64,000 bases of DNA from an uncultured Candidatus Saccharibacteria bacterium (GCA_964502345.1 CAZCWH010000001.1:167-64166); one strand, 5' to 3'. Numbered from the stretch's first letter, positions 6,236-63,504 are shown. Program-made: numbers and translations. Notes: a model not told the origin generated them from the sequence alone.

Positions 6236-6470
6236 ATGCAACCTAAAGCGCAACGACCAAAGGGAGTATGCGTTTGGAAGTACTCCTGTGGTACAACCTA
6301 TTTTTTAAGGAGCCTCTGGCGACTATAAAAATGGAAGTACTCTTGTGGCACAACCTAAAGCGCAACGACCAAAGGGAGTATGCGTTTGGAAGTACTCCTG
6401 TGGTACAACCTGATTTTTAAGGAGCCTCTGGCGACTATAAAAATGGAAGTACTCTTGTGGTACAACCTGA
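6236..6470. repeat. tandem repeat, 2 x 112 bp. Each unit is two ~56-bp half-units ending GGAAGTACTCYTGTGGYACAACCT.
   Basis: direct inspection: acctaaagcgcaacgaccaaagggagtatgcgtttggaagtactcctgtggtacaacctRattttttaaggagcctctggcgactataaaaatggaagtactcttgtggY occurs twice head-to-tail, between the CapA-like and FKBP genes. Confidence 0.8.
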
Positions 6471-6547
6471 TAAGAGTTTGAATTTATGAAAACTATCTTA
6501 GAACCTGAACAGCCTCTGTAAGACAGCACTCGATATCCGTTCAATGC

Positions 6548-10551: not shown

Positions 10552-11904
10552 TTACTCTGACGTCGGTGATGGGATGACAGGCTGAGTCTCAAAGTTAGCT
10601 TTAACCTCATCATCAGAAAGTTTTCGTTCCCCATCACCTTCTTTGATCGTTATTTCATAATCTCGTTCTGGTTGAGACGCATCAGAAATATAGAGAACGG
10701 CCCCGACAAACCCGACAATAAGGAGTGCAACTGAAATGAAAAACATTTTATAGTGCACAATGAATGTCCAAATTGTACTGAGCACATCAAGAAATTCAGT
10801 TACTCTACTCAAGCGTCCCCGAAGATCCGCAGCACCACTACGGATCGGGGCTGATACTGCTCGATATGATACAAGCCGGGCAGGCTGCTTTTTAATTTCA
10901 AGTGTTTCCTCTCTCTCATTATTTGATTCTTCTGGGTGTACACCTGCAAGAGCAAGCATTCTGCGAATATACAATTTGATCATCCATGTCACCAATAAGA
11001 TAAATGCAATTACAATTGAAAGGGTTATGAGCGTTGCTTTTACAGGAATAACCCAGAAATACGTAACCGCATCAGTACTTTTAACCCCGTTTTCTCCATA
11101 CGCAAGTGTTACTATCGCCTTGTACCGCCCAATTTCAGTAACTGAGCCCTCTCCCTTCCAGGTAAACCTGAAGTCTCTAATACTTTTTGGTAACACGTTA
11201 CCAAAATGCGATTGGTTATTAATTGGTATGAGGCCTCGCTCAGTTCCCCACATATTGGTGATTACAATATGACCACGTGGCTGTAAATGCACATTGCCCT
11301 TATTTTCAAATCTAAGTGAGAACTCTGCTTCAGGTGTATCTACAATACTGTCGAGCACTCTAAACTCTCGAACTGAACCTAGCTCAGTAACATCTCCTTC
11401 AATACGTACAAAGAAGAGCGAAGTTATAGTTTGTGATGTGAGTAATTGAAGTTTTGCCTCAGAGTTTTTTGGTGGCTGTGTACCAACGAGTATTGCTGCG
11501 AAATGCCCACCAGGGGGTGCATCTTTTGGAATTTCGACAAAAAATGAAAGTTCTCTGCTTTGCTCGGGTGGTATGACATACGGCCCATTTGCAATCTCTA
11601 TCCACTCTGCAAGTGTGTTTCTACTTTCATCCTCGTCTTCTAGAACTGGAATAAATTTTCCTTGTCCCGATTCCCCTGAAGCTGCAAAATTTACAACTTC
11701 TGCATAAACGGTAATTTCGTATGGATTTCCATTCACAACCTTAACTGAGCTTTGCCAGATATCACCTCTTTCAACTGATAGTTGAAAGAGTGGTGGTGTC
11801 ACCGTGAGCACCTGTGCGTTTGATTGAGCATGTACTGAAAATGGTAGTGCAAGAAAAATGCTAAAGATAAAAACTATACTGTTTGTTACAACTCTTTGAC
11901 TCAT
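10552..11904 (-). CDS. DUF916/CscA-like cell-surface protein (signal peptide, beta-rich ectodomain, C-terminal TM helices)
   Basis: signal peptide, then xTVTPPLFQLSV...VKVVNGNP, which resembles the DUF916 N-terminal motif. TM near residue 290 and a second TM near 385. It overlaps the next gene by 4 nt. Confidence 0.45.
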   Translation of the reverse strand: MSQRVVTNSIVFIFSIFLALPFSVHAQSNAQVLTVTPPLFQLSVERGDIWQSSVKVVNGNPYEITVYAEVVNFAASGESGQGKFIPVLEDEDESRNTLAEWIEIANGPYVIPPEQSRELSFFVEIPKDAPPGGHFAAILVGTQPPKNSEAKLQLLTSQTITSLFFVRIEGDVTELGSVREFRVLDSIVDTPEAEFSLRFENKGNVHLQPRGHIVITNMWGTERGLIPINNQSHFGNVLPKSIRDFRFTWKGEGSVTEIGRYKAIVTLAYGENGVKSTDAVTYFWVIPVKATLITLSIVIAFILLVTWMIKLYIRRMLALAGVHPEESNNEREETLEIKKQPARLVSYRAVSAPIRSGAADLRGRLSRVTEFLDVLSTIWTFIVHYKMFFISVALLIVGFVGAVLYISDASQPERDYEITIKEGDGERKLSDDEVKANFETQPVIPSPTSE

Positions 11905-12935
11905 TGTTTTGTAAGATCTATGTCGTGATGGCGGGGGTCTGAACGAGATTCACGTATGCGAAGTGGAATCGGATCAGAATCATCCTGTATATCGTCGTCA
12001 AGATATTTTTTATGCACAAAGAAAGCAAGTACGACTACAAGAAGTGCAAGCGCTGCAAAAATACTCAGAAGCATTTTGAGCGGTATCACATAAAAAAATG
12101 AAGTGTCCTGGACAGAAGCTCGCTCAGTATTTCCATATTCAATATTGAGAAATGCTTTATATTTGCCAAAAAGTCCATCGACAGGTACCTCTACCGCAAA
12201 CTCCTTCTCCTCGCCTGCATTGATTGTCTGATTATCAGTGTTTACTGGAAGTGAAGCAACTTCAACCCCTTTGCTGTCATAGAAGATGATTTCGCCTTTG
12301 GGTGTAAGTGATTCATCTCCTGGATTTTTGATTGTGTACACTGCTGCCTGATTGCCCGCTCCCGTAATAAATCTATCAATTATAAACTTGCCTAGTTTTA
12401 GAAATTCAACCTTATTGTCTGCTATTGTTGCATTAATAATACTTCCAGGAGCATCACCACGCTTTACCTGCTCTGCTGCTTCATCTCTGTTTCTTCCATA
12501 CCCAAATCCTAAAAACGCATGGTATTCGCCAGGGACTGGACTCGGATGAACTCTGAATGTGACTTCTAAGGTTTTTGTCGCACCAATCATAAGATTAATC
12601 CCTTGCCTGCTGAACTCCATCCAGGAAGAGAGGGACGCGGAACGATCACTCTCAATTGGAGAATGATACTCTTCAATCATTCCCCCTTCATTGACAGAGA
12701 TGTTATTGATGCTCGGGTAGATGGTGACCGGAGAATCACCCGTGTTTGTAATGGTTATGATCTTAGTTACAATGTCGCGTGCTTCTAGATCTAAATCAAT
12801 GACTAGTGGAGAAACAAGGTAAGACGGAGCCGCGAAGCTGACCAAAGGAAATAGCAGTGAAAGACAAAAAAGTGTTATCGGAATCCTTGTTACCATACGC
12901 ACAGATAGTATCATACTAAAAAATTGGTACCGCAA
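11901..12935 (-). CDS. DUF916/CscA-like cell-surface protein with C-terminal TM and an acidic/basic tail
   Basis: signal peptide, beta-rich ectodomain, then TM (LLSIFAALALLVVVLAFFV) plus a charged tail. It lies immediately downstream of the 2471-aa giant gene with a 20-nt overlap. Confidence 0.45.
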   Translation of the reverse strand: MRYQFFSMILSVRMVTRIPITLFCLSLLFPLVSFAAPSYLVSPLVIDLDLEARDIVTKIITITNTGDSPVTIYPSINNISVNEGGMIEEYHSPIESDRSASLSSWMEFSRQGINLMIGATKTLEVTFRVHPSPVPGEYHAFLGFGYGRNRDEAAEQVKRGDAPGSIINATIADNKVEFLKLGKFIIDRFITGAGNQAAVYTIKNPGDESLTPKGEIIFYDSKGVEVASLPVNTDNQTINAGEEKEFAVEVPVDGLFGKYKAFLNIEYGNTERASVQDTSFFYVIPLKMLLSIFAALALLVVVLAFFVHKKYLDDDIQDDSDPIPLRIRESRSDPRHHDIDLTKQ

Positions 12936-15900
12936 TATACCTTATACTTGTGCCATATACACCAGCTGGCTGGGACTGACGGACCTTGAGTTTAAAGACG
13001 ATATCGGTTATTTCATTTGTCACGGGGACTGAACTATATGCCACCTCATCGAGAGTTGTGGTACTCATACGAGCGTACGTATCAATGGCAGAAAATCGTG
13101 CATTGCTGTTATATAGTGTGTCATCACCCGAATGGTAACCAGCACAACCAGTAGCCTCAGTGGAGCAACCTGTACTCCAATCTATTGGACTTGCATTTGT
13201 TCCTGTAATAGGTGGAATAATTGCTTCACTTCCACTCATGAAGTCATCTGTTGCTATCATAAAAATTCGATATCCTTCGGTAGCATTTGTAGTAACTCGC
13301 AACCGTTGAACTGCCTCTACATCTGAACCAATCGGAAGTATGCCAAATGGGATTGTTGTTGTACCAGAAGCAACGTCTGTCGTAATACCCTCAGTCGCAG
13401 TCGACGACGCAACGCCACCAACTGAAAATACGAGTGATGCTCCTTCAGTTACAAGTGACGGATACTGTTCACTATTGTTAGTAGACACGGGGACTCCCTG
13501 CACTACATCGTAAAGTCTAAAGTAGTACACAAGGTTTACGCGAGGACCTGCAGATTGAATGGTAAATTCGTATTCTGTAGCATCACCACCTTCATGCCGA
13601 AAACCACTCAACGCTTGAGGGGATTCATTATGCGTTCCACAACCGTTCCCAACACCCGCGACGCAACTGTCTGCATCAGAAAGTGTTCCGGTCGTTATTT
13701 CACTGTTATCGGTACCACCTCCATCTGCATAGCACCAGGTTGAAGTTGCTGTACACGTACTTGTTGCGACCACATCTGCAACAGTTTCGAAATTTGCATA
13801 CTCTGAGTACTGCAGTTTAAAACGCACATCATCACGTGATATATTTTTTACCTCTTTCACTACAACTCGGAGCTTGACCGCTTGACCATTTGCAATATCT
13901 ATTGGTGCAACATTTTCTATTGCAAGTGGTGTAACGGGTGTTTCATTATTTTCATCGTCGTACCAGCGCCAATTTTGCGTTTTGGGAGTAAAACTTGCAG
14001 TTCTAATTTTTGGATGTTGGTAATAATTTCCTAATAGTTCCCCATTTGTTTCAACCATTCGGAAACAGTAGTATGTTTCTGCATTTGCACCATTTTGTTC
14101 AACAATCCAATCATACTCAATGGTCTCATTCACCTGCACTGCATGCGCATTAGCATCAGTATCATTTTCTTCCTCAAGCGTACCAGCTACATCCGAAATG
14201 GAAGGAAGTACGAGATCGCCGAGCGTAGGAGGGTCTCCGGAAAGAAGCGTACCATCAGTTGTTCCTGTGGCATTAAAACCCCTCCAGATTGTACTTGAAG
14301 CAGCGTTCCCAAGTGTGTTCCAGTTTGCTTCACTAATTGCACTACATGTTGAGACCATTGGAGCATACTGGAGCTTAAATGCCTTAGTGCCAGCTGGCCA
14401 TGTGGCATTGAGTGCCTGAAGAGACATGCGAATACGAATCCGTTCTCCTTCACCTAGTGGTTCATCAGTAGCAGTTAAGGTTGTGTCTTCACCAAGATCT
14501 TGACCCCCGACAGGCCACGGGTCTGTTGGCTTGAGTGCATTGTTATCAACAAACAATTGATAATGGAGTTGCTCGAGTGCAAGCCCTGCAGTTGGCCATT
14601 CAACAATCTCCGCACGATACGTAAGCACTGAACCAGTATTACTGCGCCAGATTTCAAATGCAGTAGATGAAGCAATTGTTATACCTGCTATCGCTCGCGG
14701 GAAAATCGTAGTAGTGAGTGACGAACGAGCATTTGCAAATATTGATGCGTTTGTAAGGTCAGTCAGAACCTTTCCATTCGGAAGCGTGACGCTTACCGTA
14801 AGCGGAGCTGTGCCACCGGTCGTAAAACCATTTGACTGAGTGACTTCCATAGCTCCAGCTGCAGTTTGTGTATTTTCAATGATCCATGCGACTGAAGTCT
14901 GTCCAGACGGGGTTGTCGCACCAGCTTGAAGAAAGTACGACACAGAGCCAACACTAGAAAGCCACACCTCAGCACCAAATTCATCTGTTCCATTGAGTAG
15001 TCGATTATTTCTTTTCTGTGTATGTATAAACGTACGAGTTAGATTACCGAGGGCTGTAATTGCCTCAGTTTCAGTAACACCAGCTGCACTGTAGGTGTGT
15101 TCACTTCGTTGAACAACCCAATTCGGACCTTTAAATTCAACTACGGCATAACTTACCCGTACTGCATCCGTGCCGGTTGCTCCTCGCCAGAAATATGGTG
15201 TATCGTTATTTGCATCCCATGCTGAAGTACTCGGTAATGCATCATAGTTTGCCGAACCAGTATCAGGGCTTTGTTGCCCCGTAATAAATACAACTACATC
15301 ATCATCGTTTGTGATACCAGAAACTATACTGCCCGTAGCACTCGTAGAAGCTACTCCATACGCAATAAATGTTTGATCATGCACTATCATTTCATTATCG
15401 GAACCAGGCTCTCCAATAAATTCAATAATTTCCCAATCAACTCGTGTCGATGTTGCGACTCCTGTTCGTGCAATGGTCACTGAAGTCATGATATTTGAAG
15501 GGTTGAGTATATACGCTGTTGTGTTTGTTGCGTTTTGGGCTGCGGTATTCCCCGAAGCGTGACCAGCACCAGTAATACCGATATTTGTGATACGAATAAA
15601 TGCACTCGTTGAAGCGTTTGGTGTTATGTAGTGCACTCCAGCGACAAGTGTTGTTGAGGTAGCTCCCATGAGTATGGTTGCAGAGTTACGCTGGATTTCA
15701 AAATCTCGCTCAGGAGATGTGGTGAGCTCTGCATATTTTGAATACGCGTTAAGCTCAACACTCGAAGCAGCAAGCCTAAAACAATAGGTTATATCATTAC
15801 CCGCATCGACTGTTTGCTCAATACTAAACTCTGCTTCGAGGTACTCCGAACTCGTAATTGATGTAGTTGCAATGATTGATGATGTGTCCTTTATTGCACT

Positions 15901-18900
15901 GTTTGGTGAGAGGAAACTAGAGTTTTCATTTGATACCCCGCCCCCCAGTATAGAAATGTCTGTACTGTCATCACCATCCGTTAAATTAATCGAATCGTAC
16001 ATCTCCCAGGCGCCGCCAGTCGCACCCACATCAGTCCATGATGTTACAGCGCTACAGGTTGTGATTTTTGCTCCATACTCTAATCGTAATGCTCTGGCTA
16101 ATGAAGTAACAGTACCTTCGTTTGAAACTTGTAACCTCAAACGTACGGGAGTTGTCTGTGCAACATTTGAAATTGCCGTATCTTCCGCGTCACCCGAGAG
16201 CGAAGTTGCTGTTGTCTCATCTCCATTATCACTTCTCCAGTGGTAGTGGGTCTGTGTAAGGACTGCTCCTAAAAGTGTCGTTGACCCATTCATATCACGA
16301 GTAATTGAAGGACTTACTGAGCCTCCTCCAGAGACAATTAAATTTGATGATGGGCTTTCCATGATGATATCGATAGTTTCATCATTTTGTGCAGTGTCAG
16401 TCGTATCAAGTACGGTGTACAAACACATGGTCGACGTCGTCGAAATCGAGACTGACCCTGTAAATGTTGAGGTCCCATTGGGTCCTGAAAATCCATCAGT
16501 ATCTGTTGAACCAAACTGGGCTTCCCCTCCCGTATAACTATCACTTGCACAATCATAGGGAGCAGTGGTATCCAAATCATAATGAAGTTCTATATTGTCT
16601 AGATCGGTTTGTGCATCAACAGTCCCATTTTCTGAAATAGTAATGCTGGTAACATTGCGAGTGCTGACATTCTCAGTAATGACAAAAGCGCTCCCCACAT
16701 AGAAATCTGTTGCTGGTATTGTTGTCGTTGCTGTCTGACTTGTGGTTGCAATGGTCACGAGGACATCTGAAGAAATATTTGCACGCGGTATAACTGAATA
16801 CGCTGAGAGCGCTTGTCCTTGATTGGTAACTCTAAAACAGTATGTATTCCCTTCTACCGCGGTTGTTGAAGCTACTATTGAATACTCTAATTCAACAAAC
16901 TCTGATGATGACAGAGTAATTTGGCCGGTTTGAGATACAGTATCTTTTACACCACCATTTGGAGTAAGGAAGGTAGCATTTTCATCTGTCACAGCACCAT
17001 TGATTCCTGATGCTATATTTGTAGTATCTGCACCATCAGTTAAATTTAGTGTGTCGACCATATCAAAATCACCTCCTGCTGAACCAATGTCAGTCCATCC
17101 TGTTGCTGCTTCGCACGTGCTTGGATTTGGCGCATACTCCAAACGATACTGCATTGCTGGAGTTGAACTACTGCCCTCATTTGATACCTCTACACGGAGA
17201 CGTGTGGTTGATCCTTGTCGCATCGCAGTCAGTGAGGTGTCCTCAACTCCGCTCGTCTTTGAAGTGGCAGTCGTTTCATTTCCATCATCATTGCGCCAAT
17301 GATAGTGAACGAGAGTAGGAGTATCGTTATACACCAATGTTGTTCCAGAAAGATCTTGTGAAGCACTTGGCCCGGCACTACTACTCGTAACGGTCACATC
17401 GCTCGCTGGATTTGCAATAGAAATTTCAATTGTTGAACTACTGTCCGCTGAATCAAGCACGTCCATGACGGGATATACACAAAGTGCTTCAGTCGCATCT
17501 ACATTAACAGTCGAACCAGTAAACCCTGATGTACCATCTGCGCCAGAAAAACCATTACCATCCGTTGAACCAAACTGACTTTCACTTCCTCCATACGTGA
17601 CACTTGCACAATCGTATGGCGACACTGTATCGAGCTCATAAAACAACTTTACGTTAGCAATATCTGCCGAACCATCGATTGTTCCAGATTCAGTAATGGT
17701 AATTCCAGTAATATCATATGCTTGCGTTTCATCAGTATTGTAAAGACTAAACACACTACCGACATAGACATTACTCGTGCTTGCGTAGAGTGACGCAATT
17801 TGAGACCCAGTAGTTGCAATTGCAGTGCTTGGTAAATTTGCGAGTGTAGCACCATAGATATCATCGTCTGTATTATCAAACCATGTAACATACAAACGTT
17901 CACTATTGACGAATCCTACATCAACTCCATAGATATCATCTGGACTAGTATTTACTGGACCTTGTTCATATTCCCATGTAGTCATCCCATCAGTTGATCG
18001 TTTCCATAGTACATTCGCTGTGTTGGCTGTGTTTGCTGTGGCCTGTGCGCTATACGCTACATAGACGTCGTCATTGCTTGTATCCAGTGCAATGGCAACA
18101 TTTGTAAGACCAAGTACGACAGATGCACTCACATTAGTTTTTGGAGTCCACGTACCCGCGGAATAGACTGCTGTACGTAGCACGTCGTTCCCTGGTGTAG
18201 CATTATCTGCAATGTACGCGAGATATACATCTCCAGTCGTTGGACTCACAGTAACAGCCATACCTACGTCATATGTCGCATTATCGATTGCGTTTGAATC
18301 AATAGTCGTAGACGCCGCATCCCACGAGCCAGCTCCATTATTCCAAACTTTACTTTCAATATTTTCTGCAGCGGCGCCGACATCGCGATGAATTGCAATA
18401 ATGTTGCCCCCTGGAAGTGGGGCGAGTATTGCATAGTTGTTAGTGAGCCCAAAGGGGTTAGTTCCTGTTTCTGACCAACTTCCCGCAAGATTACAACTCG
18501 CAGAACATTCAACTACAAATGAATCAGATGCATCAATACTGCTTGCATAGATCGTCCCATCAGTTCCCTTCGTTATTGAAATCTGGTTGGTACCTACAGT
18601 AATCGTGCCTCCTTGAGCGTTTGTCGTACTTACCGGTGCACTACCCATAAGCAGTGTGTCGCTCGTCGTATCAAGCCGGTTGTACCAAACATCATCAGGG
18701 TTAGTATCGAGTGTCGCTATATGAATGTAATCTCCTGTATCTCCGGGCGTCCACTGGTCATACCATACTTGAATAGAGATACAGTCGACCTGAGCATCAA
18801 CCGTTGTGGTACCACTCCATGTCTGACCTCCATCAGTTGTTTTGCGGTACACACAGTATCCGGGTGCGTCAACAAAAAATTTGTACCCTGTCTGATCATC

Positions 18901-20331
18901 GGTAAAGACGGTTTGGGAGCCGGCTAACACATGTGATGTACCTGCGGTACTCACATTGCTATCTATTGTGTACTGGGTGTAGGAGTCATTACTATTGATT
19001 TCGTCAAAGGCAGTTGTGCGTACATGGATCCCTGGAAAAATATCAGCGAGAGTTTCTCCAAAAATATCATTATCTGTGTCATCAAACCACGTTGCATAAA
19101 TCCGTTCATCACTGACCAGATTTAAATTGATGCCGTACATATCATCAGCGCTCGTATTGAGTGGCCCCTGCTCATATCCCCAACTTGCCATGTCATCAGT
19201 CGACTTGCGCCAGTAAATATTTCCAGTCGCTAGTGTGAGAGGTGTTGTACGAGCACTATATGCTACGTACACATCGTCATTAGAGGCATCAAGTGCGATA
19301 GCAACATTCGTGATTCCTTTCTCACTATACCTCACAACCTCTTTTGTCGAGGTCCACGTACCACTCGAGTATCGTGCAGTGCGAATCTGATCGTCAGCTC
19401 CAAGGGTCGTATTACGTGCGATATATGCCAAATACACATCTCCTGTCGTCGGACTCACCGTAACAGCCATTCCAACATCATACGTAGTGTTATCTGTTGC
19501 ATTTGCATCTATGGTCGTCGATGCAGCGTCCCATGAGCCTGTGCCATTGTTCCAAACCTTACTCTCAATATTCTCTGCAACCGCAGCAACGTCACGATGA
19601 ATTGCTATGATGTCGCCACCTGGGAGAGGAGCGAGTATTGCATAGTTATTGGTAAGCCCAAATGGATTTGTACCGGTCTCAGACCAACTTCCTGCGACAT
19701 TACAACTTGAAGAACATTCAACAACAAATGAATCGGAGGCATCTATACTGCTTGCATAGATTGTTCCATCTGTTCCCTTCGTAATAGAAATTTGGTTTGC
19801 ACCTGCCGTAATGGTTCCACCCTGCCCCGTAGTCATACTAACTGGTGAGCTCCCCAAGAGGAGTGTATCCCCATTGGTATCAAGACGGTTATACCAAACA
19901 TCATCTGGGTTAGTATCGAGTGTAGCTATATGGATGTAAGTTCCAGTATCCCCTGGTGTCCACTGGTCGTACCAGACTTGCACTGAGATACAGTCAACCT
20001 GTGCATCGACTGTTGTTGTAGCGCTCCAGGTCTGCCCTCCATCCGTTGTTTTACGGTACACACAGTATCCTGGAGCATCAACAAAGAATTTGTATCCTGT
20101 TTGATCATCAATAAATACCGTTTGCGAACCCGACAGTATGTGCGACGTACCAACGGTACTTGCATCAGAATCAATAGTTGCCTGTGCAGCTTCAGCAGTA
20201 GGTACTATCCTCGTTAATAGTGCATCACCAAAACTGCTAAGCAAAAAAACGAGTATAAGAATAGACGCAACAGTCTTCTTCACTCGCAAGAGTTTTTTAA
20301 ATACAATACCTCCCATTGTCACCATTATCAC
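12916..20331 (-). CDS. giant secreted surface protein (2471 aa). It has two tandem BNR/Asp-box sialidase-like beta-propellers, repeated ~190-aa HYHWRxDDG...YCFR modules, and a conserved C-terminal module.
   Basis: signal peptide. Asp-box motifs TTDGGQTW and STDGMTTW occur in two ~390-aa units that are ~85% identical at the DNA level (about 17780-18980 and 19010-20180). The C-terminus ...GTSIRYIAVPIF is shared with the 378-aa protein. Confidence 0.85.
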   Translation of the reverse strand: MIMVTMGGIVFKKLLRVKKTVASILILVFLLSSFGDALLTRIVPTAEAAQATIDSDASTVGTSHILSGSQTVFIDDQTGYKFFVDAPGYCVYRKTTDGGQTWSATTTVDAQVDCISVQVWYDQWTPGDTGTYIHIATLDTNPDDVWYNRLDTNGDTLLLGSSPVSMTTGQGGTITAGANQISITKGTDGTIYASSIDASDSFVVECSSSCNVAGSWSETGTNPFGLTNNYAILAPLPGGDIIAIHRDVAAVAENIESKVWNNGTGSWDAASTTIDANATDNTTYDVGMAVTVSPTTGDVYLAYIARNTTLGADDQIRTARYSSGTWTSTKEVVRYSEKGITNVAIALDASNDDVYVAYSARTTPLTLATGNIYWRKSTDDMASWGYEQGPLNTSADDMYGINLNLVSDERIYATWFDDTDNDIFGETLADIFPGIHVRTTAFDEINSNDSYTQYTIDSNVSTAGTSHVLAGSQTVFTDDQTGYKFFVDAPGYCVYRKTTDGGQTWSGTTTVDAQVDCISIQVWYDQWTPGDTGDYIHIATLDTNPDDVWYNRLDTTSDTLLMGSAPVSTTNAQGGTITVGTNQISITKGTDGTIYASSIDASDSFVVECSASCNLAGSWSETGTNPFGLTNNYAILAPLPGGNIIAIHRDVGAAAENIESKVWNNGAGSWDAASTTIDSNAIDNATYDVGMAVTVSPTTGDVYLAYIADNATPGNDVLRTAVYSAGTWTPKTNVSASVVLGLTNVAIALDTSNDDVYVAYSAQATANTANTANVLWKRSTDGMTTWEYEQGPVNTSPDDIYGVDVGFVNSERLYVTWFDNTDDDIYGATLANLPSTAIATTGSQIASLYASTSNVYVGSVFSLYNTDETQAYDITGITITESGTIDGSADIANVKLFYELDTVSPYDCASVTYGGSESQFGSTDGNGFSGADGTSGFTGSTVNVDATEALCVYPVMDVLDSADSSSTIEISIANPASDVTVTSSSAGPSASQDLSGTTLVYNDTPTLVHYHWRNDDGNETTATSKTSGVEDTSLTAMRQGSTTRLRVEVSNEGSSSTPAMQYRLEYAPNPSTCEAATGWTDIGSAGGDFDMVDTLNLTDGADTTNIASGINGAVTDENATFLTPNGGVKDTVSQTGQITLSSSEFVELEYSIVASTTAVEGNTYCFRVTNQGQALSAYSVIPRANISSDVLVTIATTSQTATTTIPATDFYVGSAFVITENVSTRNVTSITISENGTVDAQTDLDNIELHYDLDTTAPYDCASDSYTGGEAQFGSTDTDGFSGPNGTSTFTGSVSISTTSTMCLYTVLDTTDTAQNDETIDIIMESPSSNLIVSGGGSVSPSITRDMNGSTTLLGAVLTQTHYHWRSDNGDETTATSLSGDAEDTAISNVAQTTPVRLRLQVSNEGTVTSLARALRLEYGAKITTCSAVTSWTDVGATGGAWEMYDSINLTDGDDSTDISILGGGVSNENSSFLSPNSAIKDTSSIIATTSITSSEYLEAEFSIEQTVDAGNDITYCFRLAASSVELNAYSKYAELTTSPERDFEIQRNSATILMGATSTTLVAGVHYITPNASTSAFIRITNIGITGAGHASGNTAAQNATNTTAYILNPSNIMTSVTIARTGVATSTRVDWEIIEFIGEPGSDNEMIVHDQTFIAYGVASTSATGSIVSGITNDDDVVVFITGQQSPDTGSANYDALPSTSAWDANNDTPYFWRGATGTDAVRVSYAVVEFKGPNWVVQRSEHTYSAAGVTETEAITALGNLTRTFIHTQKRNNRLLNGTDEFGAEVWLSSVGSVSYFLQAGATTPSGQTSVAWIIENTQTAAGAMEVTQSNGFTTGGTAPLTVSVTLPNGKVLTDLTNASIFANARSSLTTTIFPRAIAGITIASSTAFEIWRSNTGSVLTYRAEIVEWPTAGLALEQLHYQLFVDNNALKPTDPWPVGGQDLGEDTTLTATDEPLGEGERIRIRMSLQALNATWPAGTKAFKLQYAPMVSTCSAISEANWNTLGNAASSTIWRGFNATGTTDGTLLSGDPPTLGDLVLPSISDVAGTLEEENDTDANAHAVQVNETIEYDWIVEQNGANAETYYCFRMVETNGELLGNYYQHPKIRTASFTPKTQNWRWYDDENNETPVTPLAIENVAPIDIANGQAVKLRVVVKEVKNISRDDVRFKLQYSEYANFETVADVVATSTCTATSTWCYADGGGTDNSEITTGTLSDADSCVAGVGNGCGTHNESPQALSGFRHEGGDATEYEFTIQSAGPRVNLVYYFRLYDVVQGVPVSTNNSEQYPSLVTEGASLVFSVGGVASSTATEGITTDVASGTTTIPFGILPIGSDVEAVQRLRVTTNATEGYRIFMIATDDFMSGSEAIIPPITGTNASPIDWSTGCSTEATGCAGYHSGDDTLYNSNARFSAIDTYARMSTTTLDEVAYSSVPVTNEITDIVFKLKVRQSQPAGVYGTSIRYIAVPIF

Positions 20332-23659: not shown

Positions 23660-25405
23660 CTATTGTACTATATGTTCGATATCTGATATTTCCTTTCGTA
23701 TCTTTGACCGTGCGTCAGCGAGATCTGTTTCAATTTGATCTATAAGAGTATTTTCTGCCTGTGTGAGCTTGCCTTTTCGTGACTCTTTCAGCTTTTCAAC
23801 ATTTTTGTGCATGTTGGTCATTACTTCGTCGAGCTCTATCTTCATTATACTCTCTACCTCAAGGGTTTCTTTCTCAACTTTTCGACGCCACACCGCAAGC
23901 CTGTGCCAGAGATACCAGCAACCAAAAATCAGTACAATAGAGAGTGAGATAAGCGGAACAAGTACAGAAAGCACCGTCACAACAAACGAACCAATTCGTA
24001 CGAATCCTGGTTCCTCAACTATAATTCTAATCGGATCTGAGACATCACTTGTTGCGCCGTGCATGTCTGTTGCAATTGCCGTTATGTCATACACACCAAT
24101 TTCAAATGGTGCGTCAGGGATGAATATGAATGCACCTCCCCCGTCGGATTTAAGTGTGTACGTTTTTGTAGCACCATCTGTTGGTGTCACTGACACCTCT
24201 ACCTGTGCGTCAGGACGTGTAGTACCCCTCAGTGCTGGGATTACTTCAGCGTTAATTCGTGATGGATACTCAGTAAAAAGTGGTTTCTCAAATGCTGTAA
24301 TATCAAATGAATATGTAGCAACTCGACTGTTACCTGCACCATCAAATGCTTCTACGATAAGTGTATGGTGTCCTGGCGCTATTGAAGGAAGCACGTACTT
24401 TCTCGTTTCTTCCTCATCTAGATATTCAAAAGGGTCAGTAGCATCAATCTGTATTTTGTATCGTGTTACAGGAGAAATATCTTCCACAGTAAACTGAAGT
24501 GTTCGCTTTGGATTTGATGGATCAAAATCAGTATCTTCTGAAACAGTAAATGCTGACGGCGCCTCACTATCTACCTGGATTTTAAAGTGGGTTACCCTAC
24601 CCCATCCCTCTGCATTTTTAAACTGAATATGGAAATACGATATGCCTTGTGGCAAATCCTCGAGTGTACGTGATCGAATGGGCTCGTCATATACGATGGT
24701 TGGTATTGTACTTGGAGCAGTGTCGAGTAATGTACGTACTGCAATAATTCCACTCGGTAGTTCCCAACTAAGCTCTGCAGCGTCATTCTTGTACCAGGTC
24801 TCCTGATTACCATGAGTCGTTGAAGTGACAACTGGAGCCTTTGGGGTATTGGCTGGTGCAATATACTCAGGCTCTGGATTACTCGTTACTGCAGAAATTG
24901 TATAGGAAGAACCAGTCATTGATGTCAGAACATTTGTTCCAAGTCCATCAGCTGCAAGCACTGAACCACTCTTAAAGGTGACTTTTGGATTACCTGCACC
25001 AAGAGGTCTAAACGTAATTGTTAAAATGTTCCCCGAGGCTCCGGTGTAACCCGTTGGTGATCCTCCTCCAAACGATATTGTGCCTAATGTATTTGAAAAA
25101 CTTGGCTCCTGTGTCCACAAATTAAAAATGGAACTCGCTCGAGAGACACTGACGACAGAAAGCTCCTTTGGGTTATAAGAAAGCTGACCATCTGCAGCAT
25201 TGACTGCTTTGTTTTGAGTATTAATGATCACATTTGCGGTAAATGTCCCTCCAACGGTATACACTCCCGTATCTGGACTCACACGAAGTGTTGCAGCATG
25301 TGCCGACTGTGTCATACAGATATACAACACACTCAAGAGACCAACGATGATGATCGTTCGTAAAAATACTATTCCTATACTATTCGATTTCAACATTGTC
25401 TTCAT
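23660..25405 (-). CDS. cohesin-domain bitopic membrane protein with a cytoplasmic coiled-coil tail
   Basis: signal peptide, then a cohesin-like domain (ATLRVSPDTGVYTVGGTFTANVIINTQNKAVNAADGQLSYNPKELSVVSVS...NLW). Ig-like domains follow, then a TM (IGSFVVTVLSVLVPLISLSIVLIFGCWYLW) and a ~90-aa charged helical tail. Confidence 0.7.
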   Translation of the reverse strand: MKTMLKSNSIGIVFLRTIIIVGLLSVLYICMTQSAHAATLRVSPDTGVYTVGGTFTANVIINTQNKAVNAADGQLSYNPKELSVVSVSRASSIFNLWTQEPSFSNTLGTISFGGGSPTGYTGASGNILTITFRPLGAGNPKVTFKSGSVLAADGLGTNVLTSMTGSSYTISAVTSNPEPEYIAPANTPKAPVVTSTTHGNQETWYKNDAAELSWELPSGIIAVRTLLDTAPSTIPTIVYDEPIRSRTLEDLPQGISYFHIQFKNAEGWGRVTHFKIQVDSEAPSAFTVSEDTDFDPSNPKRTLQFTVEDISPVTRYKIQIDATDPFEYLDEEETRKYVLPSIAPGHHTLIVEAFDGAGNSRVATYSFDITAFEKPLFTEYPSRINAEVIPALRGTTRPDAQVEVSVTPTDGATKTYTLKSDGGGAFIFIPDAPFEIGVYDITAIATDMHGATSDVSDPIRIIVEEPGFVRIGSFVVTVLSVLVPLISLSIVLIFGCWYLWHRLAVWRRKVEKETLEVESIMKIELDEVMTNMHKNVEKLKESRKGKLTQAENTLIDQIETDLADARSKIRKEISDIEHIVQ

Positions 25406-26471
25406 AGAGTGCTAACAGTTTTTGCTTGCGTCGCCAGAGCATGTATACAATAAGCCCACACACAACGATTACGAGCGTCCCCACAACAACCCACGTAATA
25501 ATTGTGCCCAAGGTTAATGTACGCATTGCCTCTGCAGGAACGAGGACCGCAACAGTTTCATTTCCTGCCTTATCAATTGCTTTGACACGTATTGTGCTAT
25601 TAAGTGTTTGATCAGTTAGGACATATGGGCTTTCAGTTGTCACCCATGGCGCATCAGCTCTCCCCCACCTAAATGCATAGAAATCTTCAAAGGGTTCTTC
25701 CATTACTTCATAGTGGTCGATTCCTGATTGTTTATCATGACTATTAAAGGATATGAAGTAGCGTCCACTAAACGCGAAATCATCTTTGAAAAGACTTATT
25801 AAAAAATCTGATGGCTTAGTGGTGTCCGTCTGGACACGATTTTTCCAGTCGTCTTCAGTTGTTTCACCTGCAGTGCCAAGTAGTGTGATTATGGCTCCCT
25901 GTGTACGTAGTGAAGCTGGAGTGCCGAAACCATCATGAATAAGCACTTGCGATGTCTCGTCAACCCAAATATTAGCTGTGGGTGCATCTCCAGCTCCGAT
26001 ACTAAAACCAGGTGACCGGAAGACAAGTTCTGCAATTATATTCGTGAGACTCGGATCACCAGCAATTCTTCCACAGTATCCACCAGGCAAGCCTCCTGCG
26101 AGTGTAATCGTGTGATTTTCTTCATCAATCTTAGGGTCCTCGAGCCAAATATTGAGAATTGAATCACCGCGCGATACATCAACGGCTCTGATGGCTGAAT
26201 CATACTTAATTACAGCATCGACTGCATTGATACATTCCCCTTCATCTGTATCAATTCTTAAACCGACCGTCACAGTATCACCTCGATTTAAATTTATTTC
26301 TCCTGGATCAAAATATAGAAGTGCAGCTTGTGTATGCACACATAACACCAAAAACAGTAGTGAAGAAAATAAAAAATAGGCGAAACCTCGCACGACATGC
26401 TGAATGGCGCTGTGCATATGTACGTATAGTATAACAGTCACTATAGTCTGACATAGCCCCACTACCCACAT
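25380..26471 (-). CDS. cohesin-domain membrane protein (N-terminal signal/anchor, cohesin-like domain, C-terminal TM)
   Basis: LLYFDPGEINLNRGDTVTVGLRIDTDEGECINAVDAVIKYDSAIRAVDVSRGDSILNIW is cohesin-like. The C-terminal TM is TIITWVVVGTLVIVVCGLIVYMLW. Confidence 0.65.
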   Translation of the reverse strand: MWVVGLCQTIVTVILYVHMHSAIQHVVRGFAYFLFSSLLFLVLCVHTQAALLYFDPGEINLNRGDTVTVGLRIDTDEGECINAVDAVIKYDSAIRAVDVSRGDSILNIWLEDPKIDEENHTITLAGGLPGGYCGRIAGDPSLTNIIAELVFRSPGFSIGAGDAPTANIWVDETSQVLIHDGFGTPASLRTQGAIITLLGTAGETTEDDWKNRVQTDTTKPSDFLISLFKDDFAFSGRYFISFNSHDKQSGIDHYEVMEEPFEDFYAFRWGRADAPWVTTESPYVLTDQTLNSTIRVKAIDKAGNETVAVLVPAEAMRTLTLGTIITWVVVGTLVIVVCGLIVYMLWRRKQKLLALYEDNVEIE

Positions 26472-26826
26472 AAAAAACCCATCTCGCTCTAAAGTGACCC
26501 AATGTCACTTTAGAGGAGGTTCTCGATAGTTTAATCCGCCTGAGGGCGGAGAGAACTATCATAGAACCAGAACAGCTTCTGTAAGAAGGTGGCTAGCCAC
26601 CACGAGCTTGGCTTTTCTTTTGAGCAAATCCATTTGCTCAAAAGAAAAACCCGTCTCGTGGTGCGACCCAATTTCTAAGGAGCGAAGCGACTATAGAAAT
26701 GGAAGTACTCCTAGATCAGCTCCGAACATCGCAGAATTCAAACATAGTGTAGCGGGTGGGATAAAAGAAAAACCCGTCTCGTGGTGGGAGATAGGGTTTT
26801 TCTAAACTCTTGTACTGTTGCTTGTT

Positions 26827-27963
26827 TTAGAACGTCGGTGTCGCAATGTAGCGAAGCTCCGTCGTATAGTCGTCGCCTGCTTCTTGGAGCGCCGAGATCT
26901 GAATCTGGTACCCGATGCGTGCGGCGCCTATTCCGGCAGTCACACCATCTGCTGGTCCCGTATGACCCATAACCACTATAGGTGTCGTGCTACCTGATAC
27001 CCATTCATCTGAACCAAACTCTTCTGGTGCAGAACGTGAAGTTGTAGCGTCAGTTGAGGTTAGACCCCAATGACCGTAGGTAGCGATGTCAGCAACAAGA
27101 GCACTTGGCCCTTGCCACGCAGTTGGTGTTTGCGTGTAGGCTCCATCGATGAATCCATCGATTATTCCGCCTGTTGTTGATTCGAGATCACCTGTTTGTT
27201 CTACTGTTACCGTGTAGCCGTGTAGGGCGTTTGTGGTAACAGAAAGATCTTGAGCAAGTGTTTTTGACGTATTGATTTCGAGTGTACCGAACGGTAGCGC
27301 TACATTAGTTGAAGTTGCTGCAGTCGTTGTTGGGCTCCCGTTCACGGTTGAGCTGGCTCCGACGCCAGTGACTGTGAATGTGAGCGAAGCATTGACGCTT
27401 GCAGATACCGTTACTTCATCAATGATAGCGACCCGAACTTGCCCTGAATCGGGCATGGTTCCACCGATTTCAATAAGATGCGATGTCGTTGTTGCAGTCG
27501 GGTTTGAGATCTGAGCATCCCCTCCTCCAAATAGACCAATCTCAATTACGAGTGGTGTACTTGATGCCTGCGGTACGTTACTCGGTGATGTGAGTGTTAG
27601 TACCTGAGCATTGAAGTAGGCTCCCCACACTCCACTTCCATTTACTGCCGCTACTGTTTGTGGAGTAGCTGATGCAGTGATGTCGATATCATCGAATGCC
27701 ATTGCTGGTATCGTGAAATCTACAGGAAATGTAATGGTGATCGTTGAACTTGCGAGCATACCAGTTGGCGTTGTAAACGCAATGGTGTGGTCGGAAGGCA
27801 ACCCTGGTGCAGAACTAGACAACGTATCACTTGCAAAAGTGATTGATGCAGCTTCCGCGGTGCGGAAGATGGTTGGAAGACCTGTACTCCAAAGGAATAC
27901 AGCGATACCAACAATCATTGCAACAGCCTGAAGAGTTCGCACGGTACTTGCCGTGTGAATCAT
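26827..27963 (-). CDS. secreted protein sharing the ~170-aa type-A C-terminal module with the 2471-aa giant protein
   Basis: 378 aa with a signal peptide. Its C-terminal half aligns by eye with the 2471-aa C-terminus (L.F.V.GV.ASST...PFG.L.I...VTTNA..GY... ...RYIA.P.F). Confidence 0.6.
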   Translation of the reverse strand: MIHTASTVRTLQAVAMIVGIAVFLWSTGLPTIFRTAEAASITFASDTLSSSAPGLPSDHTIAFTTPTGMLASSTITITFPVDFTIPAMAFDDIDITASATPQTVAAVNGSGVWGAYFNAQVLTLTSPSNVPQASSTPLVIEIGLFGGGDAQISNPTATTTSHLIEIGGTMPDSGQVRVAIIDEVTVSASVNASLTFTVTGVGASSTVNGSPTTTAATSTNVALPFGTLEINTSKTLAQDLSVTTNALHGYTVTVEQTGDLESTTGGIIDGFIDGAYTQTPTAWQGPSALVADIATYGHWGLTSTDATTSRSAPEEFGSDEWVSGSTTPIVVMGHTGPADGVTAGIGAARIGYQIQISALQEAGDDYTTELRYIATPTF

Positions 27964-28537
27964 AGGCTTTACGTTGTATTAACTACAGTATGTCGACTCT
28001 AATAATGAGCGGTTTGTATTGTTGTGCTCTTTCAACAATATTTACCTAGTAACCATGAGAGTCTCCACCCCTCTTTGATTCACTTTCGAACATACTACAC
28101 TCACCTCGACAACGCTCGGCTGTAAGCATTGGTACAGGATATTAATCCTAATACAAGTATTTCCTTCTCACATGTATGAAGTAAATACCTCGAAATGACT
28201 GTAAGTTCATTGTAACGTGAAGTTTTTTTATGAGCGGTTACTTATACACAAAATGGAGTAAAAATTCTTGTCACGGTAAATTTTTCACAAACCGCCAGCC
28301 TCCCTTGTACTCAAGGACTAAAAAGGCACCCCGTGTAATTGCAACTTATTTAACTAACTTGAGTTCCTTTCATCGCTTTTTCTTCATTGAAAAAGAAAAA
28401 GCGACGAACTCAGAAAATATCGGCCAGTTGCTTATGTCCAAATTGAAAGTTGGAGCAGGGCGTCTCCACAAAGCATCAGGAAAAGCATTGTGGAGACGGA
28501 CTCCTAAAGTATTGTCGCTGCGCTCTGTACTTTAGGG

Positions 28538-29662
28538 TCACCCGGTCCAGTTGAAGAGAAGGATTGAGAAGTCTTCGAGACTGACTCGACCATTTTGATT
28601 AATGTCTGCTGGAGGATTCGAGTTTCCACCTGGCGTATTCCACCAAAAAATCAGGATTGAAAAGTCGATTAGATTTACCTTCCCGTCACGATTGAGATCC
28701 GAGTTACTCGTCGGCCTCCCCTCAACTCCTACAAATAGTGACAGTGCCGTACCATAGGTACTTTCTGTTTTGAGGTTGCCTGTTCCTTCAATGAATCGTG
28801 CCTTTGCGGTGTGTGTATCTGCGGTGACGCTCGATGTATTGAAATCAACACTCCAATTTCCATTCGCGTCTGATGTTGTCCTCAGAGTTTGCTTTCCATT
28901 ATCAATTGATACTTCAACTGCAACACTTGGAACTGTTTGCCCACGCAAAATTATTGTCTCACCGGGATTAGGAGCATTATTGGAAGCACGTATAGTTGGT
29001 GGAATTAGCACACCGTTTACGTTTGTCACTGCACCCTGCGTTATATCAAACGTAGTACTGAATGTTGCAGATCGTGTCCCCGCAGTATCATTTGCCCAAA
29101 AGCTAAGTGATGCTGTACCAGGTTCAGTATCTGTATTAAATAAAAATTCTCCCCTACTATTTGTACGCACAGTCCCCACTGACTCACCATCAATTAAAAT
29201 AGTAACGGTGACATTCGGATACGCTTTCCCCTGCACAGTCACTTGCGTATCGCCAAGTTCGGTATCTCGTCCTCCTGACCCTGAATTTCCACCACCACCG
29301 GTCGATCCTCCTCCTGCATCTGCTTCTTCTTCTGTACAGTCTGCTGCACAAAAATCACCATCGGTATTGTTACCATCATCACACTCCTCTGAATAAATCG
29401 TTTGTAAAATAGCATCACCACAATATGGTGCCCACCTACAAATATCAGTGCACTGTCTTCCTGCGATTGTTGTGCTGTATTCCCCAGTATCTGTTGGGAT
29501 ATCACAGCTTTCTCCTGCATTGACAATAAGGTCACCACAAATACTAATGAGTAGCGAAGTCGTCGCAATACTTGATTGAGACGAAGCAACAAGAGGAACA
29601 AACATGGTGAGCAAACCACATATGCTTAGAATGAAATGATACGCAGGTCGTTTAGCGTACAT
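28538..29662 (-). CDS. secreted dockerin-bearing protein. Myxococcus-type Cys-rich repeats, a Gly-rich linker, two Ig-like domains, and a C-terminal dockerin.
   Basis: CGDxxxxxGEECDDGNNTDGDFCAADC-type repeats. The C-terminus DLNRDGKVNLIDFSILIFWW...DINQNGRVSLEDFSILLFNWTG is a dockerin duplicated-segment motif. Confidence 0.7.
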   Translation of the reverse strand: MYAKRPAYHFILSICGLLTMFVPLVASSQSSIATTSLLISICGDLIVNAGESCDIPTDTGEYSTTIAGRQCTDICRWAPYCGDAILQTIYSEECDDGNNTDGDFCAADCTEEEADAGGGSTGGGGNSGSGGRDTELGDTQVTVQGKAYPNVTVTILIDGESVGTVRTNSRGEFLFNTDTEPGTASLSFWANDTAGTRSATFSTTFDITQGAVTNVNGVLIPPTIRASNNAPNPGETIILRGQTVPSVAVEVSIDNGKQTLRTTSDANGNWSVDFNTSSVTADTHTAKARFIEGTGNLKTESTYGTALSLFVGVEGRPTSNSDLNRDGKVNLIDFSILIFWWNTPGGNSNPPADINQNGRVSLEDFSILLFNWTG

Positions 29663-36885: not shown

Positions 36886-37019
36886 TCCCCAATCGCATAG
36901 AACGTGACCAGAAAATAATGAGCGTAGCGATTATATTTTCTGAGTCCATCTTCATGAGCTTTTCCTATGCCTCATGAAGATGCCGTAATCAAACGCTCAA
37001 TAAAATATGGAAGTAGTAT

Positions 37020-60840: not shown

Positions 60841-61030
60841 ACGATATCATTCTACTTGAAATGTTCAAAATATTACTGCGACTTATACACAAATGTTGCT
60901 TTAAGAAGATATCAGAAAAATGCTGACAGAAATTACTATCGCTGCAACTCCGAGGGGCGGTACACCTTTCGCAGAGATTGGCCCAGGCCACTCTCTCTGC
61001 CTACTGCATTCACCTTGTGTTCAAGGTCCT

Positions 61031-61053
61031 AAAAAAGCACCCCGTGCTTTTTT
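61031..61053. terminator. bidirectional intrinsic terminator AAAAAAGCAC-ccc-GTGCTTTTTT
   Basis: perfect 10-nt complementary arms with a GC core, flanked by an A-run and a T-run. A degenerate copy sits at ~28321-28345. Confidence 0.55.
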
Positions 61054-61084
61054 AGCCCGTCCAGTTGAAGATCATGATTGAAAA
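61052..61084 (-). pseudogene. orphan remnant of a dockerin C-terminus (encodes FSIMIFNWTG-stop) without an upstream ORF
   Basis: reverse-complement reads ttt tca atc atg atc ttc aac tgg acg ggc taa. That is 10/10 aa identical to the end of the 61171..63042 protein and ~70% nt identical to the 3' ends of both dockerin genes. The frame is closed a few codons upstream. Confidence 0.4.
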
Positions 61085-63042: not shown

Positions 63043-63342
63043 GGTACTTGCTTATTGTACCGTACGTAACCACTGATTATTGACTCCCGGTGCGTATAAA
63101 TCCATCCTCAGTGCTCATTTGTATAGAACATGCTTCCCTGAGCAAAGTTCGAGATAAAAGAAGCATTAGGAAAAGCATTATCGCTAATATTCTTATATTT
63201 CAGTTATTTTGAGACGTCTAGCCCTTTCATCATGAACGATGAAAGGGAGACGGAAGTTCGCAATAGTCGCTACTTCTTACAGAAGCTGTTTAGGTTGTTG
63301 CAAGTTTGTCTCCAGAGTCACAAACTTGCTAACAACCTCTTG

Positions 63343-63364
63343 CAAAAGTGCACAGCACTTTTTC
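63343..63364. terminator. intrinsic terminator-like hairpin AAAAGTGC-aca-GCACTTTT with a flanking T-run
   Basis: 8-nt complementary arms, plus-sense TTTTT at 63359-63363, and an A-run on the other side so it is bidirectional. It lies in the 460-bp intergenic region upstream of the dockerin gene. Confidence 0.45.
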
Positions 63365-63504
63365 ACTCGTTGCTCACTTTTTATAAAACCTGATTTCCTG
63401 AGCAAAGTTCGAGGCAAAACTAAGTTTTTGATTAAGCCCTACTTGGCGTAGGGTGAGATGAAAAACTGACGTTTTAACGAGGAAATTTGCCAGGAAAGCA
63501 GGTT

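Follow-up and report, generated by a model that had tools for sequence, protein, structure and literature searches.

The stretch of DNA analysed here, hereafter the window, comprises 64,000 nt from an assembly labelled as an uncultured Candidatus Saccharibacteria bacterium (GCA_964502345.1, CAZCWH010000001.1:167-64166), and all of its long open reading frames (ORFs) lie on the minus strand. We focused on the spacer between a gene encoding a 378-amino-acid (aa) protein (27963..26827, minus strand) and a downstream ORF listed as 26471..25380. An original prediction had called the density of palindromes in this spacer atypical and had offered three explanations: a small RNA (sRNA), a riboregulatory leader of the downstream gene, or a mobile-element scar. 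The structure density is real: folding of the whole spacer gave -162.6 kcal/mol, compared with -108.3 +/- 5.8 kcal/mol for 100 shuffled sequences (z = -9.3). The spacer dissects into a conserved terminator, a conserved promoter and an interior that holds members of two dispersed repeat families together with partial copies of the terminator, and the presence of these interior modules varies among relatives.

The spacer is flanked by two syntenic surface-protein genes, and 15 orthologous loci, fetched with identical gene order, were compared. No Pfam domain was recognised in the 378-aa protein, whose homologs number over 1000; among the 120 matches listed, identities are 63-100%, and one match is labelled Minisyncoccia. 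Relatives in species-representative genomes come from Kaiserbacteria, Paceibacteria and Parcubacteria metagenome-assembled genomes (MAGs), and some records carry the label 'uncultured Saccharibacteria'. Because of these labels, we place the host in the candidate phyla radiation (CPR)/Patescibacteria, as an ultra-small bacterium of the Paceibacteria/Kaiserbacteria type. The downstream gene had been called a cohesin gene; the likeness of its product to cohesin is weak (Pfam Cohesin, E = 0.0033) and falls below the cut-off.

The stop codon of the 378-aa gene (26829-26827, minus strand) is directly followed by AAAAACCCTATCTCCCACCACGAGAnGGGTTTTT in all 15 orthologous loci. An intrinsic terminator begins 23 nt past the stop codon (26803-26763, minus strand; AGAAAAACCC-UA-UCUC, loop CCACCAC, GAGA-C-GGGUUUUUCUUUU). 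Its stem of 8 + 4 bp with a small bulge, its 7-nt loop and the following TTTTTCTTTT make up the stable stem-loop and U-tract expected at a gene's 3' end. A simple consensus terminator scan did not flag this structure, because the inner stem has 2 G-C pairs and a bulge. Across the 15 loci, where the encoded proteins are 50-77% identical, 26 columns of the terminator stretch are invariant, the loop CCACCAC among them, and in two loci the arms are altered in a compensating way (GCTATCTC/GAGGTAGC in L011 and CCTATCTC/GAGATAGG in L157). The terminator is conserved beyond the protein of the 378-aa gene in these 15 genomes, and this conservation extends to the loop and to the 5' arm TATCTC; the invariant loop might be a binding site for a protein or an RNA, or part of a C-rich RNA derived from the 3' untranslated region.

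At the other end of the spacer, an extended -10 element, TGtTATACT (26436-26428, minus strand), is conserved in the orthologs: T(A/G)TACT, mostly with TG upstream, lies 6-17 nt before the ATG in 15/15. The orthologous products are 338-343 aa long, a length matched by the 345-aa product that starts in the window at 26417-26415 (minus strand). Since the ortholog lengths and the spacing from TGnTATACT to ATG agree, we take this ATG as the real start. The spacer is therefore ~410 nt long, and the 'start' at 26471 is an artefact of ORF listing. A hairpin had been described as lying 16 nt upstream of the start codon, which holds for the ATG at 26471, the first in frame of the ORF as listed, and not for the real start. 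No Shine-Dalgarno sequence was found for the downstream gene or for its 15 orthologs, and the downstream mRNA is predicted to be nearly leaderless.

Read on the minus strand from the terminator onwards, the interior begins with Insert 1 (26762-26664), described as a 91-nt insert. It starts with ATCCCACC, which perhaps resembles the 5' side of the terminator loop, and it carries on the plus strand one hairpin of the first repeat family, module A (26661-26713; 60.1 bits with covariance model R1). X copy 2 (26663-26640, CACCACGAGACGGGTTTTTCTTTT) is a direct duplicate of the 3' half of the terminator; the direct repeat between the two extends over 27 nt at 96%, with a spacing of 123. Then come a fold-back hairpin, GAGCAAAT-gg-ATTTGCTC (26639-26622), and an inverted copy of X, AAAAGAAAAGCCAAGCTCGTGGTGG (26621-26597). 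X copy 2 and the fold-back (26639-26597) form a palindrome over 26598-26663, which had been noticed with 17-bp arms and in fact extends to 32-nt arms (26598-26629/26632-26663; 88% complementary). The orthologs have an analogous hairpin, built with the terminator T-tract. CTAG and then CCACC, the 5' side of the terminator loop, occupy 26596-26588 (CCACC at 26592-26588). The perfect 14-mer GGTGGCTAGCCACC, located at 26588-26601 as claimed, can be read as the junction of the inverted X end (..GGTGG) with this direct CCACC copy.

The interior also contains a member of the second family, the P-unit, with three hairpins on the minus strand (26590-26487; model R2, 56.2 bits, E = 2.4e-10, match 26488-26590). 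Its first hairpin, P1, has the loop CTTACAG (26585-26579). P2 (~26569-26518) has the outer stem GGTTCT/AGAACC, a compensatory variant of the family consensus, and an apical CCGCC-ctca-GGCGG, while P3 (26515-26487) reads CTCTAAAGTGAC-attgg-GTCACTTTAGAG. Two of the predicted hairpins thus find their place: 26487-26498/26504-26515 (12 bp, 100% paired) is P3, and CCGCC-tgag-GGCGG, within 16-nt arms at 26525-26540/26545-26560, is the tip of P2. Directly 3' of P3 lies X copy 3 (CGAGATGGGTTTTTT, 26486-26472), with direct-repeat spacings of 172 and 123. The 19-mer AAAAACCCGTCTCGTGGTG is X read on the plus strand; as predicted, it occurs exactly twice in the 64 kb (0 expected), with a third and shorter copy at 26473-26486. 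CCACC and CGAGA..., neighbours in the terminator loop (CCACC-A-CGAGAC..), enclose the P-unit. With CCACC before P1 and X copy 3 past P3, the P-unit therefore sits within an incomplete duplicate of this loop. All of the listed palindromes and repeats are explained by the terminator and its copies together with module A and the P-unit.

Both families are dispersed. Two sequence blocks of the spacer had been said to recur at 6.3-6.5 kb, and both do, one of them also at 63.28 kb (0 expected in shuffles). The block GCGACTATAGAAATGGAAGTACTC is module A, a hairpin with a variable A/T-rich stem and the conserved loop AAGGAGCGAAGCGACTATA, which itself holds a covarying mini-hairpin (GC-GAA-GC, GCC-TCT-GGC or GAC-GGTA-GTC). 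Often it is followed by GAGYCCGTC and a second hairpin, module B, with the loop TATTCCTAATAA. In the further window copies given below it reads T(A/T)TTCCTAAT(A/G)A; base pairing would be possible between AGGAG of loop A and UUCCU of loop B. Model R1 finds 23 copies in 492 kb, and 93.8% of cells are paired compared with 68.9% in shuffles. In the window, four tandem module A hairpins (a 112-nt unit, twice) lie at 6236-6457 (plus strand) and form one of the two dispersed blocks there. A complete module A+B is located directly past the stop codon of a dockerin gene (28440-28547, minus strand; 59.1 bits for 28492-28544), and another is antisense to the genes (36901-36990, plus strand; 54.1 bits for 36901-36953). 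We ruled out a small-ORF reading of ATGGAAGTACTC, as most module A copies have no ATG there. In viral contigs, the module A loop pattern matched just a phage kinase-like coding sequence, which is a chance match.

The second block, GAACCAGAACAGCTTCTGTAAGA on the plus strand, is the 5' part of the ~90-105-nt P-unit. When metagenome contigs were scanned with the core pattern CTTACAGNNNCTGTYCAGRTTGT, at least 120 contigs matched; no viral contig did. With model R2, built from 33 copies, 129 copies were detected across 100 of these metagenome loci, frequently several to a spacer and in either orientation; the window holds 4 copies, and the same 492 kb holds 14. In the consensus, P1 has a variable 4-5-bp stem and the invariant loop CTTACAG, and the junction reads CTGTTC. 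P2 has the outer stem AGGTTGT/ACAACCT and a variable inner hairpin of two subtypes, and P3 is a ~12-bp hairpin, commonly CTTGCGAAAG-nnn-CCC-nnn-CTTTCTCAC, with a GTGACATTGAGTCAC-type tip in some copies. From its sequence, P2 of the window copy (26518-26569, minus strand) and of subtype 1 would fit the kink-turn consensus, GGUUG-UAU-GA...GA-CAACC, that is, a C-stem, a 3-nt bulge and tandem G-A pairs; the fit is missing from subtype 2. The best copy of the window, consensus-like and antisense to the genes, lies at 63271-63367 (plus strand; 80.7 bits). A direct repeat, CCTGAGCAAAGTTCGAG, stands ~140 nt upstream of it and 22 nt downstream (63128-63145 and 63389-63406, plus strand), reminiscent of the flank duplications found elsewhere. 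Degenerate copies are present at 60995-61056 (plus strand; 27.1 bits) and at 6459-6527 (minus strand; 24.8 bits), the latter being the dispersed block at 6.5 kb. We dropped an orthology of this 6.5-kb copy with L019:54, as the P2 loop motif that they have in common is a subfamily trait.

The P-unit helices covary. In the model-fitted alignment, 96.7% of cells are paired, compared with 74.1% in shuffles and 35-55% for slid partners, and double-sided changes number 516 versus 133. Almost all of these changes are from one Watson-Crick pair to another, and G-U pairs are nearly absent, apart from one P2 pair. The two strands fold alike (-32.17 versus -32.29 kcal/mol; Wilcoxon p = 0.78), with G-U pairs at 57/1528 on one and 46/1515 on the other (~3-4% on either strand). 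P-units are intergenic in 113/122 cases, and their orientation relative to the flanking ORFs is mixed: between co-directional genes 25 are antisense and 11 sense, while 11 lie between divergent and 8 between convergent genes. No recurrent partner gene was found within 2.5 kb of P-units; the 814 ORFs, once clustered, yielded housekeeping families alone, the largest being EF-G, DnaE, RNase Y and ribosomal proteins. Nor was there an integrase within 2.5 kb in 120 P-unit loci. Searches against Rfam 15 at the gathering threshold gave 0 matches in the whole window, and permissive E-values for 26300-27000 and 63230-63420 returned sub-threshold microRNA-type noise alone. The 63.3-kb copy had no match even at E <= 5, and the P-units in 7 metagenome loci had none. 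In the literature searched, we found no description of module A/B or P-unit repeats; a paper on group I introns in Patescibacteria transfer RNA (tRNA) genes does not mention duplications or repeats.

The terminator and the promoter are kept in the 15 orthologs; the spacer interior differs strongly among relatives. The ortholog spacers are between ~100 and ~735 nt long. Those of the four genomes L016, L011, L020 and L017, at ~100-120 nt, consist of terminator and promoter alone. The longer spacers contain recurring modules in differing combinations, orientations and tandem copies; the elements are inverted in L005 and L010 and replaced in other orthologs. The closest relative with data, L156 (76% aa), shares just the first ~70 nt of Insert 1 and is without X copy 2, the large palindrome and the P-unit. 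Assembly gaps (N-runs) fall exactly in the orthologous spacers of L005 (~11210-11350), L009 (~11340-11440) and L013 (~11165-11260), where they adjoin tandem repeat modules; the repeat modules break MAG assemblies. Further dispersed blocks were seen, namely AAGGTGAAT..GAGAGGnTGCCCTGGnGTACTTG and a block ending in TTAGAAAATCTTAGCCGT that precedes module A/B copies; they are located at L004 ~11355-11420, past the P-unit in L050 and L081, and in L004 and L157 (TTAGAAAATCTTAGCCGT).

The placement of the window P-unit within a partial duplicate has counterparts elsewhere. Among the 101 P-units with enough upstream sequence, 18 have an exact copy (at least 14 nt) of their 3' flank 40-250 nt upstream, compared with 12 of 1556 random positions, and this flank copy begins exactly at the end of P3. 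The copied sequence can be the first ~24 nt of tRNA-Thr or tRNA-Asn in antisense, internal parts of tRNA-Gln or tRNA-Ser, the 3' part of tRNA-Ile in sense (L153, L080), 5S ribosomal RNA (rRNA) from ~position 24 to its 3' end (L047, sense), or the 5' coding region of a divergent gene; in the window it is the terminator. In 6/20 cases this neighbour sequence also carries on into the 6-9 nt to the left of P1, and the P-unit lies inside a left-truncated partial duplicate with the intact neighbour gene adjoining. A 'type I' architecture is without P3 and has inverted copies of the tRNA T-arm on both sides. P-units stand beside intact tRNA or 5S genes in L074 (12838-13091), L104, L042, L048, L089, L142, L153 and L047 (2883-3230), and the duplicate often stops on its right where the RNA gene does (at position 1 of the tRNA, at the 3' end of 5S, or 2 nt beyond the tRNA discriminator base). 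A tRNA with an insertion or intron was ruled out, as ARAGORN places complete tRNAs beside the elements and not across them. A simple target-site-duplication (TSD) model fits some loci, L153 among them, and fails where the element is inside the copy (L074, L142, L047).

Overall, we consider it probable that palindromic repeats, non-autonomous and acting at the DNA level, form a nested mosaic between the terminator and the promoter of this spacer. The modules presumably spread as DNA and would not serve the flanking genes in any dedicated way, except perhaps by supplying terminator or insulator hairpins. A DNA-level or both-strand element is favoured over a one-strand RNA because the changes are almost all of the Watson-Crick type, the strands are symmetric, the orientation is mixed, and neither a partner gene nor an Rfam match was found. 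The degenerate P-units of the window (24.8 and 27.1 bits) point to decay. In the proposed sequence of events, module A and the ~104-nt P-unit would each have entered the terminator loop region, and next to each insert there would remain a partial terminator copy in direct or inverted form, with the intact terminator upstream. Candidate routes of spread are hairpins in single-stranded DNA (ssDNA), template switching at stalled replication, and a trans-acting HUH-type enzyme. Of the three options first offered, the mobile-element scar is the best supported, in the form of a nested mosaic of two repeat families and not of a single insertion sequence (IS) or miniature inverted-repeat transposable element (MITE) with TSDs. 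The P-unit has neither terminal inverted repeats nor a fixed TSD: P1 and P3 are separate hairpins, not mutually complementary, and the direct repeats are of variable length (14-58+ nt) and accompany ~18% of copies.

Several observations weigh against this mosaic interpretation. The loops and junctions are conserved (CTTACAG, CTGTTCAGGTTGT, ACAACCTCTTGCG, the CCC loop) and the stems are variable, a pattern that is also expected of an RNA with a function or of a site recognised by a protein. A strand-specific feature is seen in P2, where one base pair is split between U-A (63 copies) and U-G (55 copies). In L074 and L104, probably orthologous and both beside tRNA-Thr, P1 and P3 show compensatory changes and the 24-nt flank copy is identical, with the sequence between them at roughly 75% by eye; the identical flank points to constraint or else to gene conversion with the tRNA gene, which lies at a distance of 100 nt. 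No mobilising enzyme was found in the window or among the P-unit neighbours, no fresh pair of empty and filled sites was caught among the loci examined, and the mechanism of insertion is one that we infer. Pfam scans of the window recognised no transposase, integrase or reverse transcriptase; its other genes encode UvrB, TGT, FKBP, an ABC transporter, HSP20 and cohesin/dockerin surface proteins. Two giant ORFs with internal repeats, of 7248 aa (37020-58766, minus strand) and 2471 aa (12916-20331, minus strand), lie within a cluster of cohesin/dockerin/immunoglobulin-domain surface proteins.

Some of these observations would be accommodated if the P-unit were a small-RNA scaffold whose target-derived flank serves as a guide or antisense for a trans-acting protein, with a function that could be RNA-guided targeting, modification, processing or homing. 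We regard this as possible and rather unlikely. The scaffold would have covarying stems and invariant loops, the 55 copies with a U-G pair would agree with an RNA, and one P2 subtype would fit the kink-turn consensus. The flank copy, starting exactly where P3 ends, is antisense to an adjacent tRNA or to a divergent 5' coding region in nine loci (L074, L104, L042, L048, L089, L142, L075, L121, L082), and that of L074/L104 is identical despite diverged surroundings. However, the flank copies are sense for tRNA-Ile (L153/L080), 5S (L047) and the window terminator, so that simple antisense pairing fails, and just ~18% of copies have an exact flank copy at all. Folding shows no strand asymmetry, G-U pairs are almost lacking, orientation relative to genes is mixed, and no conserved partner gene is nearby. 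The promoter-like hexamers occur in one subtype only, inside P1/P2, and would start transcription inside P2; the T-run of the window copy is owed to the duplicated terminator. The sRNA option of the original prediction is weakened by the same strand symmetry and near-absence of G-U pairs, by the occurrence in both orientations and by the degenerate copies, and we hold it with no more than slight confidence for the P-unit.

About as tentative is the idea that the P-unit, and perhaps module A/B, represents a CPR-specific class of structured elements that enter the loops of structured-RNA genes or terminators and carry a copy of the target beside a conserved scaffold. Such a target-copy-bearing RNA or ssDNA element could be served in trans by an HUH nuclease, a reverse transcriptase or an RNA-guided protein, and it may influence the expression of tRNA, rRNA or mRNA.

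The tRNA and 5S contexts raise another alternative, according to which the elements are remnants or attachment (att) modules of small integrative elements at tRNA, 5S rRNA or hairpin sites, the repeats being attL and attR. L153, L080 and L061 look like this, with an intact tRNA, an insert of ~150-230 nt and a tRNA repeat from the anticodon or T-loop to the 3' end. By contrast, other loci duplicate the 5' part of a tRNA, internal segments, coding sequence or a terminator, and the insert is often inside the partial copy and not between the repeats. An insert of this small size, many other targets, and no integrase within 2.5 kb (120 loci) or in the window do not resemble a tRNA-targeting integrative element, and a fixed site-specific system cannot carry so many identity blocks. 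We therefore judge this alternative improbable.

Less credible still is a cis-regulatory leader, attenuator or riboswitch of the downstream cohesin-like gene. The region is highly structured, and upstream of the gene a promoter-like CTTACA-16-TATGAT appears on the gene strand, followed by two hairpins and GGGTTTTTT. Nevertheless, the conserved promoter lies ~10 nt before the ATG, past all hairpins. Four orthologs are without the elements, in other orthologs they are inverted (L005, L010) or replaced, the same element stands beside unrelated genes and RNA genes, and there is no Rfam match. The riboregulatory leader of the original prediction is unlikely on the first two of these points. As a main explanation, the promoter reading of CTTACA-16-TATGAT was rejected as well: the hexamers are inside the covarying helices P1 and P2 and are missing from the second subtype (GGTTGTCGCT...), and copies of the element are found in either orientation. 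Finally, an ordinary terminator and promoter spacer with extra palindromes due to chance or simple local duplications, for which a terminator, a promoter and some local duplications are indeed present, is hardly tenable given motifs with 0 expected by chance, the fold z of -9.3, and a P-unit core found in at least 120 contigs with 129 modelled copies in 100 of them and covariation.

CPR/Patescibacteria genomes, at ~1 Mb, are regarded as highly streamlined. This spacer and many others in related genomes are inflated by at least two structured repeat families that we did not find in Rfam 15 or in the literature searched, one of which, the P-unit, is abundant in environmental metagenomes, breaks assemblies, and repeatedly sits in partial duplicates of tRNA, 5S or terminator sequences. 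If these repeats are selfish DNA only, they provide a handle on CPR genome dynamics and mis-annotation, and they explain false ORF starts and false 'sRNA' and promoter calls. If the target-derived flank is functional, the P-unit would be a new kind of guide-bearing element. As to the question first posed, the many hairpins of this spacer cannot be taken to show that the cohesin-like gene has a riboregulator.

Among known systems, guide-RNA scaffolds such as the TnpB reRNA/omega RNA and TIGR-Tas resemble the P-unit in that a conserved, structured scaffold leads directly into a variable segment identical to a target sequence in the genome. TIGR-Tas systems have been reported in CPR bacteria (PMC12045711). 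Unlike their arrays (PMC12045711), the P-units, each of ~100 nt, occur singly or in irregular clusters and lack a recurrent protein neighbour; they are accompanied by neither a nuclease gene nor a Nop-domain gene, and they are not organised as tandem arrays or in 36-nt units. The 'guide' here is 14-58+ nt long and present in a minority of copies, and the strand asymmetry expected of an RNA scaffold is missing.

The palindrome-associated transposable elements (PATEs) of the IS200/IS605 group, which rely on TnpA (HUH) chemistry, share hairpin-rich ends, a putative link of insertion to ssDNA hairpins, and the lack of a classical TSD. TTAC, which we take to be the IS608 target tetranucleotide, is found inside the invariant P1 loop CTTACAG. 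However, in the P-unit this motif is in a loop and not 5' of a left end. The 3' end is sharp, at the end of P3, while no conserved left end or fixed flanking tetranucleotide was defined. There is no TnpA or TnpB within 2.5 kb of P-units, and flanking partial duplications are not a trait of peel-and-paste transposition. BOX elements of Streptococcus pneumoniae and the Correia and enterobacterial repetitive intergenic consensus (ERIC) repeats are likewise modular, variable in number and order, strongly structured by prediction, intergenic and non-coding. They have no sequence relation to the repeats described here; Correia and ERIC have terminal inverted repeats and a fixed TA duplication, of which the P-unit has neither, and such repeats are unexpected in a CPR host with a ~1-Mb genome.

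A close likeness is to the repetitive extragenic palindromes (REPs) and bacterial interspersed mosaic elements (BIMEs) of enterobacteria and pseudomonads, which are short, dispersed, multicopy extragenic palindromes in either orientation, arranged in mosaics between genes or behind terminators, with Watson-Crick-only stems and no adjacent gene. The repeats here are high-copy, extragenic, imperfect palindromes that form mosaics in both orientations as well. They differ in that the units are larger and composite (three hairpins in ~90-105 nt, or the two-hairpin module A/B), the loops and junctions are conserved while the stems differ fully between copies, there is no conserved GTAG head, and the insertions come with partial tRNA, 5S or terminator duplications. 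No REP-associated tyrosine transposase (RAYT/Y1) was found in the window Pfam scans or among the recurrent P-unit neighbours, a search that covered only the 64-kb window and locus fragments. By analogy, we think that the spacer probably holds a REP/BIME-like or BOX-like mosaic that is nonetheless distinct in its composite units and in its conserved loops with variable stems. What sets it further apart is that its elements have neither terminal inverted repeats nor a fixed duplication, and are accompanied by partial duplications of hairpin-forming targets.

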